Positions 60,285 to 63,722 of a stretch of DNA of 64,000 nucleotides are shown here, one piece after another (positions within the stretch are counted from its first letter, which is position 1; each line of letters opens with the position of its first letter). This stretch comes from an uncultured Methanosarcinales archaeon (GTDB taxonomy: Archaea > Nanobdellota > Nanobdellia > Woesearchaeales > GW2011-AR4), in contig CAZYSP010000003.1 of assembly GCA_964650285.1 (NCBI GenBank), positions 6,364 through 70,363 on the forward strand, written 5' to 3'. Below the pieces are notes generated by a model. That model did no database searches and was not told the DNA's origin. It saw nothing but the letters and a program-made list of their open reading frames with translations. The position numbers and the translations under genes are program-made.

Positions 60285-61247
60285 ATGGAAGGGAAATTCA
60301 AATTAATAGCAGGAACCGCAAATAAGGGCCTTGCTTTGGAAGTAGCTAAAAAGCTAAATGTCAAGCTTACTCCAGTAGACATACGTAAGTTTAATGATGG
60401 GGAGCTTTATGTCAGAATCCTGGAAAGCGTTAGAGGTTGTAATGTATTTATCATACAGCCAACAAGCTATGATGCAAATTTGCATCTAATGGAGCTTCTG
60501 ATTATGGTAGATGCATTAAAAAGAGCGTCTCCGAAAAGGATAACTGCTGTTATTCCATACTTTGGTTATTCGAGACAGGACAGAAAAACAAAGCCTCGCG
60601 AACCAATCACATCAAAACTTGTTGCAAAACTGATAGAAGCAGCTGGTGTCGATAGAGTTATGACATTTGACTTGCATGTTGCCCAAGTGCAGGGATTCTT
60701 TGATATACCCTCTGACAATTTAGAGCTAACACCTATTTATGCAGAATATATAATGAGCAAAAAACTCAAGGACATAGTTTTTGTAGCCCCTGATGTAGGC
60801 AGCGCTCCAAGAGCACGTTCATTGGCAAGAGTGATTCATGCACCAATAGCCATTGTGGATAAAAGAAGACCAGAGCAGGGCGTTGCAAAAGTGGAGCATG
60901 TCATCGGAGACGTTAAAGATAAAACAGCCATCTTAGTGGATGACATAATAGACACAGCAGGCACTATTACAGAATCAGCATCCATGTTAAAAAAATATGG
61001 TGCAAAGGATATCTATGTCTTGGCAACACATCCTGTTCTCTCAGACCCTGCAGTAAAAAGGCTGCAAAAAGCACCTATAAAAGAAATTTTTGTTACAAAC
61101 ACCATAGAACTACCCAAGAAAAAGAAGATTAAAAAAATAAAAATAATTTCTGTAGCACCCTTGCTTTCAGAAACCATAAAAAGAGCTCATGAAGGTACTC
61201 CGATGGGCGTTGTTTATGAAAAGTTATATGAAAAACTAAAAAAGTGA
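60285..61247 (+). CDS. prs: ribose-phosphate pyrophosphokinase
   Basis: FSDGE(L)YV, PRPP-binding loop DDIIDTAGT. Confidence 0.9.
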   Translation: MEGKFKLIAGTANKGLALEVAKKLNVKLTPVDIRKFNDGELYVRILESVRGCNVFIIQPTSYDANLHLMELLIMVDALKRASPKRITAVIPYFGYSRQDRKTKPREPITSKLVAKLIEAAGVDRVMTFDLHVAQVQGFFDIPSDNLELTPIYAEYIMSKKLKDIVFVAPDVGSAPRARSLARVIHAPIAIVDKRRPEQGVAKVEHVIGDVKDKTAILVDDIIDTAGTITESASMLKKYGAKDIYVLATHPVLSDPAVKRLQKAPIKEIFVTNTIELPKKKKIKKIKIISVAPLLSETIKRAHEGTPMGVVYEKLYEKLKK

Positions 61248-61681
61248 TGTCAATGACAGAAAAAGAAGAAAACCTGCAGAAGCTTTACCTTGAATTTCAG
61301 ATGCTGGACCAGCAAATAAAGCAGCTTGAAAAGCAGAGTGCTGCCCTCAACAACCAGCTCATGGAGCTCATGGTAACAAACCAGAGCATGGATGATATGA
61401 AAAAAACAGATAAAAAAACAGAAATCCTGGTACCTTTAAGCCATGGAATATACACAAAAGCAGAGCTTAAAGACAACAAGAGTTTTATTGTGAATGTAGG
61501 CGCTAATACAGCGCTGGTTAAAGATGTGGATTCCACTAAAAAGATGATTGAAGACCAGATTACTGAAATCAAAAAACTGCAGGAAAATCTTGTAAACCAA
61601 TTGCAAAATCAAACTATGAAAGCAGCTTCTCTAGAACAGGAAATAAATAAAATTGCTTCTTCAATTCAGAATAATAAATAA
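61244..61681 (+). CDS. pfdA: prefoldin alpha subunit
   Basis: Coiled coil, central beta-hairpins (ILVPLSHGIYTKAEL...FIVNVGAN), coiled coil. Start overlaps the prs stop (TGATG). Confidence 0.6.
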   Translation: MMSMTEKEENLQKLYLEFQMLDQQIKQLEKQSAALNNQLMELMVTNQSMDDMKKTDKKTEILVPLSHGIYTKAELKDNKSFIVNVGANTALVKDVDSTKKMIEDQITEIKKLQENLVNQLQNQTMKAASLEQEINKIASSIQNNK

Positions 61682-61692
61682 GGTGTTTTACT

Positions 61693-63393
61693 ATGTTCAA
61701 CTTTTTAAAAGACAAGTTAAAAGGAGCTATCTCAAAGTTCTCCAAAAAGGTAGAGGAAGAAACCAAAGTAGAAGAACCCATAGAAAAAGAAACAAAAGAG
61801 GAAGTTATAGAACAAAAAGAAGAGTCAAGACCTGTAGAGGGACCAAAAGAGGAAATTAAAGAAGCAGAAGAATCTCGGAAAATAATATCTTCTTTACCAA
61901 TGACAAGAGCCGAAGCACTAGAGCTCGTCAAAAAATACAACAAAGATCCATCTGATTTAAACCACTACCTGGAAAGCGAAGCAATTATGAAAGCTCTCGC
62001 AAAAAAACTTGGAGAAGATGAAGAATATTGGGCTATGCTTGGATTACTTCATGATGTTGATTGGGGCATAACAAAAGATGATGCTAAAAAACACTTAACT
62101 AAAGCTCCTGAAATACTTGAACAAGCAGGATTTGATAATAGCTTCATCAACATTGTTCTCTCTCATGGCTATGGATTTAATTGCGCTGGACTAAAAGACA
62201 AACAAAGAACTCAAAAAATTGAGTATGCACTTGCATGCTCTGAAACAATCACAGGCCTTATTCATGCCTATGCTTTAATGAAGGGTTCAATAGACGATAT
62301 GGAACCAAAAGGCCTGAAAAAGAAATTTAAAGACAAAGGTTTTGCAGCCGCAGTCAATAGGGACATAATAAGAGAATGCGAAAAACTAGGCTTAGAACTA
62401 TCTGAATTTTTTAGCTTGGCAATTGATGCTGTAAAAAGCATTGCGTCAGAAGTTGGTTTAGCGAAAGAACAGCCCAGAGAAGAAGAGAAACCACTAGAAG
62501 AAATAAAGGAAGAAGAAAAAGGCTTTTTTGGAAAACTAAAGGAAAAAATAGTCACAACAAAGATTTCATATGACAAATTTGAAAATTTATTTTCTGACCT
62601 GGAACTGACACTAATGGAAAACAATGTTGCTATGGAAGTTATAGAAAAGATAAAATCAGATCTAGGGCAAAATTTGATAGAAAAACCAATAAAAAGAACA
62701 AAAATAGAGGAAACAATAAGGGAGTCATTAAAAAATTCAGTAAAAGATTTATTTGATATTGATAAAATAAATTTATTGGAAAAAATAAGAAAAGAAGAAA
62801 AGCCATTTGTTATTGCATTTTTTGGAGTTAATGGATCTGGAAAAACAACAACAATAGCAAAGATTGCAGATTTATTAAACAAAAACAAAATTTCTTGTGT
62901 ACTGGCAGCTTCTGACACCTTCCGTGCAGCTTCTATAGAGCAATTACAAATTCATGCAGACAGATTGAGAATTAAATTAATAAAGCATGGTTATGGCTCT
63001 GACCCGGCAGCAGTTGCTTTTGATGCAGTAAAGCACGCAAAAGCAAAAAACATTGATGTTGTTTTAATAGACACAGCAGGAAGATTGCACAGCAACGTTA
63101 ACCTTATGGACGAGCTCAAAAAAGTTGTTAAAGTAGCTAAACCTGATCTAAACATTTTTGTCGGAGAAAGTATTGCAGGTAACGATTGCGTTGAGCAGGC
63201 AAAAACCTTTAATGAAGCAGTTGGTATTGATGGTATAATTTTAGCTAAAGCTGATATCGACGAGAAAGGTGGTGCAGCTATTTCTGTAAGTTACGTTACA
63301 AAAAAACCCATAATATATCTTGGAATGGGCCAGGAATATTCTGATTTAAAAGAATTTGAGCCTAATTTAATTGTAGAAGGTTTGGGGATTTAA
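61693..63393 (+). CDS. ftsY: signal recognition particle receptor FtsY with N-terminal acidic region and an HD-domain-like insertion
   Basis: C-terminal NG domain (GVNGSGKTTT, DTAGR, LAKADID). Residues ~60-250 carry an H..HD..H..H..D pattern (LNHYL, LLHDVDW, LSHGYG, LIHAYA, SIDD). GGTG ribosome-binding site at 61682-61685. Confidence 0.85.
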   Translation: MFNFLKDKLKGAISKFSKKVEEETKVEEPIEKETKEEVIEQKEESRPVEGPKEEIKEAEESRKIISSLPMTRAEALELVKKYNKDPSDLNHYLESEAIMKALAKKLGEDEEYWAMLGLLHDVDWGITKDDAKKHLTKAPEILEQAGFDNSFINIVLSHGYGFNCAGLKDKQRTQKIEYALACSETITGLIHAYALMKGSIDDMEPKGLKKKFKDKGFAAAVNRDIIRECEKLGLELSEFFSLAIDAVKSIASEVGLAKEQPREEEKPLEEIKEEEKGFFGKLKEKIVTTKISYDKFENLFSDLELTLMENNVAMEVIEKIKSDLGQNLIEKPIKRTKIEETIRESLKNSVKDLFDIDKINLLEKIRKEEKPFVIAFFGVNGSGKTTTIAKIADLLNKNKISCVLAASDTFRAASIEQLQIHADRLRIKLIKHGYGSDPAAVAFDAVKHAKAKNIDVVLIDTAGRLHSNVNLMDELKKVVKVAKPDLNIFVGESIAGNDCVEQAKTFNEAVGIDGIILAKADIDEKGGAAISVSYVTKKPIIYLGMGQEYSDLKEFEPNLIVEGLGI

Positions 63394-63395
63394 GG

Positions 63396-63722
63396 TTAAT
63401 GCTTAATTACCATTTCTTCCTTGATTTTTCCATGAACTTTTTGCTTAGTTGTTTCCCAATAGAAATCCCTAAATTTTTTAACTACGGGGTTAGCTAAATT
63501 TAGCTTATACATTTTAGCTCTCCCAACTATTCTAGTTTTTACAACTATATTGCTTTCTTCCAAATTTCTCCAAAATAATTTTAATGTAGAGTAACCAACA
63601 CCAGAAAGATTGGCAATATCTGTCATGCTATAATCAAAATCTTCATTAACCACTAAAAAATCCAATACCCTTAATATAGGACTGTCTCCAAAGGTTTCCA
63701 AAAAAGCTGTTTTGTTTTCCAT
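63396..63722 (-). CDS. winged helix-turn-helix transcriptional regulator
   Basis: DIANLSGVGYSTLKLFWRNLEESNIV HTH plus wing. Confidence 0.5.
   Translation of the reverse strand: MENKTAFLETFGDSPILRVLDFLVVNEDFDYSMTDIANLSGVGYSTLKLFWRNLEESNIVVKTRIVGRAKMYKLNLANPVVKKFRDFYWETTKQKVHGKIKEEMVIKH

Follow-up and report, generated by a model that had tools for sequence, protein, structure and literature searches.

Few known proteins are more strongly conserved than the signal recognition particle (SRP) receptors, and the A-region of these is seen as a membrane tether devoid of features. In eukaryotic SR-alpha, composed of SRX and NG, the region before NG is plastic and can hold a folded domain that anchors the protein to a membrane or a partner; SRX is a longin-like interaction domain which replaces the A-region and has neither an enzymatic function nor any relation to HD domains. 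Here we describe an open reading frame (ORF) of 566 residues with an ATG start, located at 61693-63393 (+) in a 64-kb window (the whole stretch of DNA that was analysed) on contig CAZYSP010000003.1 of a marine Woesearchaeota archaeon. The ORF encodes a genuine SRP receptor FtsY, into whose disordered A-region a complete and probably catalytically competent HDIG phosphohydrolase has been inserted in frame.

Canonical FtsY, in Escherichia coli as in Pyrococcus furiosus (PMC2572998), carries a charged N-terminal A-region ahead of the N domain, and so does the protein in the window, which also shares with it the NG equivalog TIGR00064 and all GTPase motifs. Its motifs at the N-terminus and at the junction of A-region and N domain may be analogues of the pair of helices with which E. 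coli FtsY binds lipids (PMC2928010, PMC3128533). The difference is a folded, putatively enzymatic domain of 193 residues in the middle of the A-region, whereas known A-domains are of low complexity, unstructured and non-catalytic.

Described HD proteins offer three further points of comparison. Members of YqeK / COG1713 (PDB 2ogi, 2o08, 3ccg, 8jja and 8wmy) are about 190 residues long and display an H...HD...H...H...D pattern, as does the HD module reported here, and like its family they have a functional link to an enzyme which produces diadenosine tetraphosphate (Ap4A) (PMC10148737). RNase Y, the membrane-anchored KH + HD endoribonuclease of Gram-positive bacteria, is built from an anchor, a disordered or coiled region and KH-HD, an order echoed by the tether and HD of FtsY and by a KH-containing fusion of HD to ribosomal protein uS3; in contrast to RNase Y, HD-FtsY has no KH domain, and its scores lie far under the cut-offs. 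In the beta subunit of glycyl-tRNA synthetase (GlyRS) the HD doublet is replaced by Ser-Lys (PMC8464048), a degeneration not seen in the window protein, whose HD ligands are invariant. As the original prediction supposed, the arrangement appears to be undescribed: in the literature we found no description of an HD domain or another enzyme in FtsY, nor of HD fusions to lysyl-tRNA synthetase (LysRS-HD), to uS3 (uS3-HD) or to Trm56 (Trm56-HD), and no assayed member of this HD subfamily.

Architecture of the fused protein

The FtsY equivalog model TIGR00064 (NCBIfam) matches residues 296-564 with 316 bits (cut-off 260.7), and Pfam places SRP54_N (PF02881, 24.5 bits) at residues 288-346 and the SRP54 GTPase (PF00448, 241.6 bits) at residues 371-564. 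The Ffh and SRP54 models of NCBIfam score far under their cut-offs on the 566-residue protein, and no SRP_SPB match (Pfam) to an M domain was obtained. All GTPase motifs G1-G5 (GVNGSGKT, DTFR, DTAGR, AKAD and GMGQ) are intact and near-invariant among the fused orthologs. The HD domain PF01966 (cut-off 22) is matched at residues 89-163; it scores 32.2 bits on the complete sequence and 35.3 bits when only the N-terminal part is used, and the HDIG model TIGR00277 (NCBIfam; cut-off 27.6) scores 42.5 and 45.1 bits, respectively. The Pfam scan of the protein revealed neither a KH domain nor a transmembrane segment. From residue 242, within HD, to residue 308, within the N domain, there is no stop codon and no in-frame ATG, GTG or TTG. 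HD and FtsY NG are therefore present in one reading frame with nothing to separate them, as originally proposed.

Ten aligned fused proteins share the order MFxFLKxKLKxxISKFSKKVEEE, variable acidic spacer, HD, variable acidic spacer, KKGFFxKLKEKIxTKKI and NG. The NG of the window protein is 83-88% identical to that of non-fused Woesearchaeota FtsYs. Close non-fused FtsYs (P0132, P0134, P0140 and others) display the same first motif, an E/K-rich A-region of 70-140 residues, the KKGFF motif and NG. Because these non-fused orthologs carry the same motifs on either side of their spacer, the HD is evidently an in-frame insertion within the A-region and not an N-terminal domain; it covers the whole of the stand-alone HD protein described below, from 'SLP(I/M)TR...' through '...EVGL'. 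The original prediction had taken the HD as an N-terminal addition to an FtsY with the short A-region assumed for archaea. Residues 1-22 are instead the normal FtsY N-terminus of the lineage, and the A-regions of its non-fused relatives are not short. FtsYs of 400-940 residues with very long E/K-rich A-regions are common in DPANN archaea (e.g. P0212, P0210, P0122, P0127 and P0308); several of them contain extra internal copies of 'KKGFFxKLK', which suggests repeated membrane-binding elements.

The motif of residues 1-22 has a net charge of +5. The first linker has an isoelectric point (pI) of 4.6 and consists of E and K to 53%, and it differs in length and sequence between fused orthologs; the second has a pI of 4.3 and 65% E and K, and ranges from 17 to more than 100 residues. 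AlphaFold2 with a mixed alignment gave predicted local distance difference test (pLDDT) values of 92-98 for HD and 82-98 for NG, and values below 50 for residues 27-61 and 264-278 (predicted template modelling score 0.58), with helices predicted at residues 3-25 and 278-287. This model shows HD and NG as two independently folded modules on flexible acidic linkers. An 'amphipathic membrane-targeting helix' was considered as a feature of the protein and dropped after comparison of the Eisenberg hydrophobic moment with shuffled sequences: the values for residues 2-19 and 276-290 were not significant, being reached by 12% and 68% of the shuffles.

Across 208 members of the HD family H91, H120, D121, D123, H158 and E184 are 100% conserved, followed by H134 (99.5%), D214 (94%) and H191 (88%, with Y in 11%). 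Of the metal ligands named in the original prediction, H91, the doublet H120-D121, H158 and H191 stand, whereas D201 of the 'SIDD' motif is conserved in just 13% of the members and D214 is conserved in its stead. The ligand residues are invariant or near-invariant among the fused proteins. Because its ligands, unlike those of GlyRS beta, are invariant and its ratio of nonsynonymous to synonymous substitutions (dN/dS) is 0.15 in the fused context, the HD module should be an active enzyme.

A search with the protein's N-terminal portion delivered 1903 proteins, nearly all stand-alone, 188-200 residues long and 65-75% identical to the module over their full length; they share its invariant residues and its predicted fold. 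These stand-alone members (e.g. P0004, P0116 and P0106) originate from Woese-, Pace-, Micr-, Nanoarchaeota and Promethearchaeota. The stand-alone HD has a gene to itself, as a rule directly downstream of lysS, whereas the fused module lies inside ftsY and lacks both a start and a stop. In GTDB species genomes the HDIG family of about 194 residues occupies 289 loci, mostly in DPANN and some in Asgard archaea; the best 80 of these were kept, and all GTDB locus counts below refer to them. Since the 80 loci come from 80 different assemblies, the family is single-copy; the fused metagenome-assembled genome (MAG) ARS74 occurs once among them. Within the 64-kb window there is no second HD, no second FtsY, no lysS and no rps3.

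Modelled alone, the HD module is predicted as an all-helical HD fold with a pLDDT of 95.9; its pI is 5.8. A single-sequence search of the PDB found nothing, a profile search found only YqeK 2ogi and 8jja (E 0.28-0.36, H...HD region only), and Foldseek matches of the model were weak. The nearest curated families, compared for 59 members, are HDIG (59/59), TIGR00295 (59/59), the HD tail of Trm56, PRK12703 (58/59; best E 7.6e-8), and the HD of RNase Y (57/59; best E 6e-8). For the last two the HD core alone is aligned, with about 20 bits for Trm56-HD (family cut-off 434) and 17-20 bits for RNase Y TIGR03319 (cut-off 454, profile positions 331-400). Of the 59 members, not one is matched by the curated YqeK model and one by the NadD-YqeK fusion model (E 0.027); YqeK was not recovered as the closest structural neighbour. 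By these scores the family belongs to neither YqeK / COG1713 nor RNase Y, though it may work like either. The fold is a generic one, as of phosphohydrolases acting on nucleotides or nucleic acids, and no neighbour stands out as the nearest.

Relatives of the fused gene and history of the HD segment

Twenty contigs that stem from independent projects and assemblers encode exactly this 566-residue product, among them JGI 3300022227, JGI 3300005520, ENA ERZ27286507, TARA SAMEA2623390 and NCBI GCA_001040505.1. Neighbours are constant across these contigs: ScpA, phosphoribosyl pyrophosphate (PRPP) synthase, prefoldin, the fusion gene and an opposite-strand ORF of 108 residues. The same HD-FtsY architecture occurs in at least ten diverged lineages of Woesearchaeota and Nanoarchaeota at 48-76% identity. 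P0121 (568 residues, 76% identity to the window protein) is fused and named plain 'FtsY' at NCBI; P0122-P0128 from the full-length search are fused, too (585-707 residues, 48-68% identity), and P0001 is the N-terminal fragment of a further fused protein. Additional genomic copies of the fusion are located in L011 (MAG ARS74), L092 and L094. The order ScpA, prefoldin, ftsY(HD) is also found in the diverged P0124 and in L092, and in the genome of P0123 a separate SRP54 lies two genes downstream of the fused ftsY, with one gene between. The fused genes are the native ftsY of their genomes. A separate small HD gene immediately upstream of ftsY, which had been named as something to look for, was found in none of the relatives examined. 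Nor did the fusion arise through read-through from such a gene, the upstream neighbour in the window being prefoldin alpha. Selection across the fusion junctions is purifying.

Two features of the searches bear on how the lists of relatives are to be read. The protein search with the N-terminal query missed P0121 although its HD is 90% identical, so that the lack of a close stand-alone HD from that list is no evidence of absence. In the search of clustered representatives nearly all fusions fall under one representative, P0128.

The HD segment appears to have a history different from that of its host gene. The window and the fused lineage of L092 and L011 have syntenic loci with 74.5% nucleotide identity. 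Between them the proportion of synonymous differences (pS) is 0.72 in ScpA, 0.59 in PRPP synthase, 0.68 in prefoldin and 0.65 in the non-HD parts of ftsY, but 0.277 in HD (34 differences at 121 synonymous sites versus 433 at 665 for the rest; Fisher p=4e-14). Third-position identity is 0.75-0.95 over residues ~75-260 and 0.45-0.65 outside. As controls, pairs of LysRS-HD fusions have equal pS in HD and host (0.55 versus 0.59 and 0.42 versus 0.49), and the uS3-HD pair L007/L093 exhibits the opposite mosaic, with a pS of 0.008 in S3 and 0.12 in HD, which suggests an HD segment with its own recombination history. An intrinsically low synonymous divergence of HD, through codon bias or RNA structure, was considered and rejected on the equal pS of the LysRS-HD pairs and the opposite bias of L007/L093. 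Because pS of HD is far below that of its flanks and the controls show no such deficit in HD, the ancestor of the HD cassette of the two fused lineages is much more recent than that of the host genes. The low pS could reflect transfer, gene conversion or two recent insertions from near-identical donors.

Neighbour-joining trees of NG and HD, built without bootstrap, are incongruent: the NG of the window groups with that of the non-fused P0132 and the NG of P0121 is placed elsewhere, yet the HDs of the window and P0121 are sisters. In both trees the fused proteins are non-monophyletic; the sampling of the deep fused sequences was biased, as they were picked by HD score, and recombination violates the model on which such trees are built. 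On the divergence pattern and the trees, the HD cassette has probably been exchanged between lineages by recombination.

Partners of the HD family

LysRS is encoded directly upstream of HD on the same strand at 46 of the 80 GTDB loci, within 150 nucleotides at 29, within 1.5 kb at 15 and farther away at 2. At about nine of the 80 the HD carries an in-frame N-terminal extension of some 520 residues, a class II lysyl-tRNA synthetase (NF001756 with up to 658 bits versus 468, TIGR00499 with up to 617 versus 427.6); the FtsY fusion is present at one, L011. The LysRS-HD proteins, about 700-730 residues long, occur in Pace-, Woese- and Nanoarchaeota and in Diapherotrites; besides those in Table 1 they include L029, L044, L078, L080, L100 and L170. 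The association with LysRS recurs in the metagenome scan (L095, L097-L101, L107 and L110), in which the LysRS of L170 is fused to an HD of only 37% identity.

In three independent Woesearchaeota assemblies the HD is joined by an acidic linker to the C-terminus of uS3 (KH_2 + S3_C). These genes lie within the operon L22-S3-L29-SUI1-S17-L14. One of them, L008, is on a 1-Mb contig of B3_Woes (GCA_005222965.1), where a continuous ORF of 418 residues encodes uS3-HD; the public annotation lists an HD piece of 235 residues only and no S3 gene. The HD of another, L093, is with 77% identity the closest relative of the window HD outside FtsY.

LysRS-HD and uS3-HD resemble HD-FtsY in that an acidic linker connects a core translation protein with an intact member of the same HD family, whose catalytic residues are kept. 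They differ in that HD is a C-terminal appendage in both, whereas in FtsY it is an internal insertion with host sequence on both sides, and in the process served by the partner, which is aminoacylation or the small ribosomal subunit versus co-translational targeting. Because LysRS, uS3, FtsY and Trm56 (with a related HD) are all translation components, the HD enzyme may act at the translation machinery.

Other genes recur beside the stand-alone HD: an acylphosphatase at 28 loci, a protein of 193 residues which looks TrmY-like by eye at 26, an MJ0538-family protein at 25 and a ComEA-like HHH protein at 23. In some Pacearchaeota a PIN-domain gene is located immediately upstream of HD (cf. L009 / L010). 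The HD also occurs with a C-terminal extension of 265 residues (L163, 4881-6362) and with N-terminal extensions of 145 residues (L061, 4539-5549) and 121 residues (L112, 4638-5555). Six loci with HD or LysRS-HD (L018, L054, L069, L080, L082 and L089) are on contigs labelled as bacterial (delta proteobacterium, Gracilibacteria, Parcubacteria, Bacillota), either mis-binned DPANN sequences or genuine carriage by members of the candidate phyla radiation.

In the window, 11 nucleotides separate the prefoldin-alpha stop from the ATG of ftsY. The ORF of 108 residues at 63396-63722 (-) converges on ftsY, and its stop ends 2 nucleotides past the ftsY stop; it is kept on all contigs with the fusion gene, and no Pfam hit was recorded for it.

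Table 1. Features of the fused ftsY locus in the window, and positions of LysRS-HD and uS3-HD genes in their own loci
Feature	Location	Coordinates	Strand	Residues	Remarks
Prefoldin alpha	window	61244..61681	+		upstream gene; PF02996 match on every contig carrying the fusion gene
FtsY N-terminal motif	window	61693..61758	+	1-22	basic/hydrophobic, MFNFLKDKLKGAISKFSKKVEE; opens all fused and non-fused close orthologs
Linker 1	window	61759..61887	+	23-65	acidic, E/K-rich, disordered A-region remnant
HD/HDIG module	window	61888..62466	+	66-258	inserted; predicted metal-dependent phosphohydrolase
Linker 2	window	62467..62517	+	259-275	acidic, disordered spacer
FtsY proper	window	62518..63390	+	276-566	'KGFFGKLKEKI' junction helix and NG (N four-helix bundle, SRP-type GTPase)
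ftsY stop codon	window	63391..63393	+		
LysRS-HD	L012	3417-5573			
LysRS-HD	L017	3471-5594			
LysRS-HD	L056	3381-5570			
LysRS-HD	L060	3396-5579			
LysRS-HD	L089	3405-5576			
uS3-HD	L007	25-1284			
uS3-HD	L008	3452-4708			
uS3-HD	L093	1246-2523			

Proposed function and alternative explanations

According to the explanation favoured here as more probable than not, the HD enzyme would operate on or next to the translation machinery, and the only HD copy of this lineage would have moved onto the SRP receptor FtsY, whose A-region would have served as a permissive insertion site. The long flexible tether would hold HD at the membrane, the translocon and the ribosome-nascent-chain complex, while the NG domain would perform ordinary GTP-dependent SRP docking.

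Several points weigh against this explanation. The link to translation is a Rosetta-stone inference from three partners and is equally compatible with a neutral fusion whose sole effect is co-expression. Tethering to the membrane is proposed by analogy to E. coli FtsY only, because the hydrophobic-moment test was not significant. The activity, the metal and the substrate of the HD family are all what we infer from its residues and relatives. The 'sole copy' is read from one fused MAG and from a family that is single-copy elsewhere, in MAGs which are incomplete and among the best 80 of 289 loci, and the NG and HD trees call for caution as neighbour-joining trees lacking bootstrap values. Finally, most close relatives have no insertion, so HD is not required for SRP receptor function.

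With regard to the substrate, hydrolysis of an RNA-end phosphodiester or phosphate, or cleavage of the RNA backbone, as in the HDIG subgroup of RNase Y and the Trm56 tail, is the reading that we tentatively place first; it is put forward because the sequence is near the HDs of RNase Y and Trm56 and because all partners bind RNA. It is somewhat doubtful whether HD instead hydrolyses Ap4A-type dinucleoside polyphosphates (Np4N) or Np4 caps. In that case HD would act like YqeK and remove the Ap4A by-product of LysRS; when carried by FtsY, its role would be to shield the SRP GTPases or to dispose of Np4-capped mRNAs at ribosomes bound to the membrane. This alternative, which concerns the substrate only, draws on the position of class II LysRS, the classic producer of Ap4A (PMC10148737, PMC10249747), which is adjacent or fused in 46 of the 80 genomes, on YqeK 2ogi and 8jja as the sole profile matches in the PDB, and on the abundance of Ap4A in archaea, for which a review assigns no archaeal hydrolase (PMC10249747). 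Against it stand the poor quality of those matches (E about 0.3 over the H...HD region) and the 0/59 and 1/59 results of the YqeK and NadD-YqeK models, compared with 57-59 of 59 for the RNase Y HD, Trm56-HD and TIGR00295; it also leaves the associations with uS3 and Trm56 unaccounted for.

The main rival to the favoured explanation as a whole takes the fusion to be neutral and the linker to be permissive: HD would have landed in a disordered, insertion-tolerant A-region and would be a co-expressed, tethered but soluble housekeeping hydrolase with no functional link to SRP targeting or the ribosome. FtsYs with an NG 83-88% identical to that of the window lack the insertion, the linkers are long, disordered and variable, A-regions within the clade are of very different lengths and accommodate repeats, and the occurrence of the same HD on three different partners means that no single partner is required. 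We nevertheless consider such parking unlikely: the three partners and the Trm56-type relative are all translation components and not random proteins, the adjacency to LysRS in 46 of the 80 genomes is far from random, and the fusion persists in at least ten diverged lineages, among which recombination has spread it again or homogenised it, which suggests that it is at least not deleterious and may be favoured.

A more far-reaching version of the favoured explanation, which we regard as improbable, would make the HDIG family an unrecognised archaeal RNA-processing enzyme of the translation apparatus, either an RNase Y-like endonuclease or phosphodiesterase or a hydrolase of Np4 caps or RNA ends. 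DPANN and some Asgard archaea would bring it to its substrates by coupling it to LysRS, to the tail that uS3 has at the mRNA entry channel, or to the membrane-tethered FtsY. The FtsY form would be a surveillance nuclease for mRNA or tRNA at the membrane and translocon, with a function analogous to that of membrane-anchored RNase Y, and the cassette would be a modular unit that is mobile between lineages as well as between host genes.

A catalytically dead HD with a structural, spacer or SRP-RNA- or ribosome-binding role would have a precedent in GlyRS beta, whose HD binds the tRNA acceptor arm and has lost its doublet (PMC8464048), and every fusion partner of the family binds RNA. With the H...HD...H...D columns 99-100% conserved in 208 copies, including every one fused to FtsY, and with an acidic module (pI 5.8) that offers no overall basic RNA-binding surface, this explanation is highly improbable and effectively excluded.

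An artefact, in which a separate small HD gene and ftsY were joined by an assembly, indel or gene-calling error, is also effectively excluded and has the least probability of all. Fusions on single metagenomic contigs are often artefactual, the uS3-HD gene of B3_Woes was mis-called by NCBI, and the database entry P0002 is a product of only 452 residues that begins inside HD; it begins, however, at Met115 ("MLGLLHD...") and matches the window protein with 100% identity from this residue up to the last, so that it evidently represents one and the same gene, either truncated or annotated from a start inside it. An indel in a single assembly is excluded by the identical ORF on 20 independent contigs, which bears out the original prediction of a fusion. 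The diverged orthologs carry one fused gene rather than two, with compensating in-frame variation in both linkers, the region between HD and NG offers no internal start and is under purifying selection, and no read-through model accounts for the FtsY N-terminal motif upstream of HD.

HD-FtsY does not amount to a new kind of system: it is an SRP receptor in which an enzyme is embedded, and in public annotation it is a plain 'FtsY'. A catalytic-type domain in the A-region of at least ten lineages implies that the FtsY tether is usable as an enzyme scaffold. To our knowledge, the usual bacterial Ap4A hydrolases are missing from these archaea, as is RNase Y/E. Since, in addition, the guanosine alarmones (p)ppGpp are undetected in archaea (PMC10249747), identification of the substrate could close a gap in what is known of nucleotide or RNA metabolism in archaea. 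The signature of a recombinant island points to exchange of a protein-domain cassette between divergent uncultivated lineages. Conservation of the HDIG family is extreme, at about 70% identity among the DPANN phyla and as far as Asgard archaea, and the attachment of this single-copy enzyme to LysRS, uS3 and FtsY, a clear Rosetta-stone signal, gives an uncharacterised family a testable functional context at the translation machinery. The surprise in the fusion as such is moderate; what makes it valuable above all is the functional lead that it offers for a widespread archaeal enzyme, along with the signal of cassette mobility.

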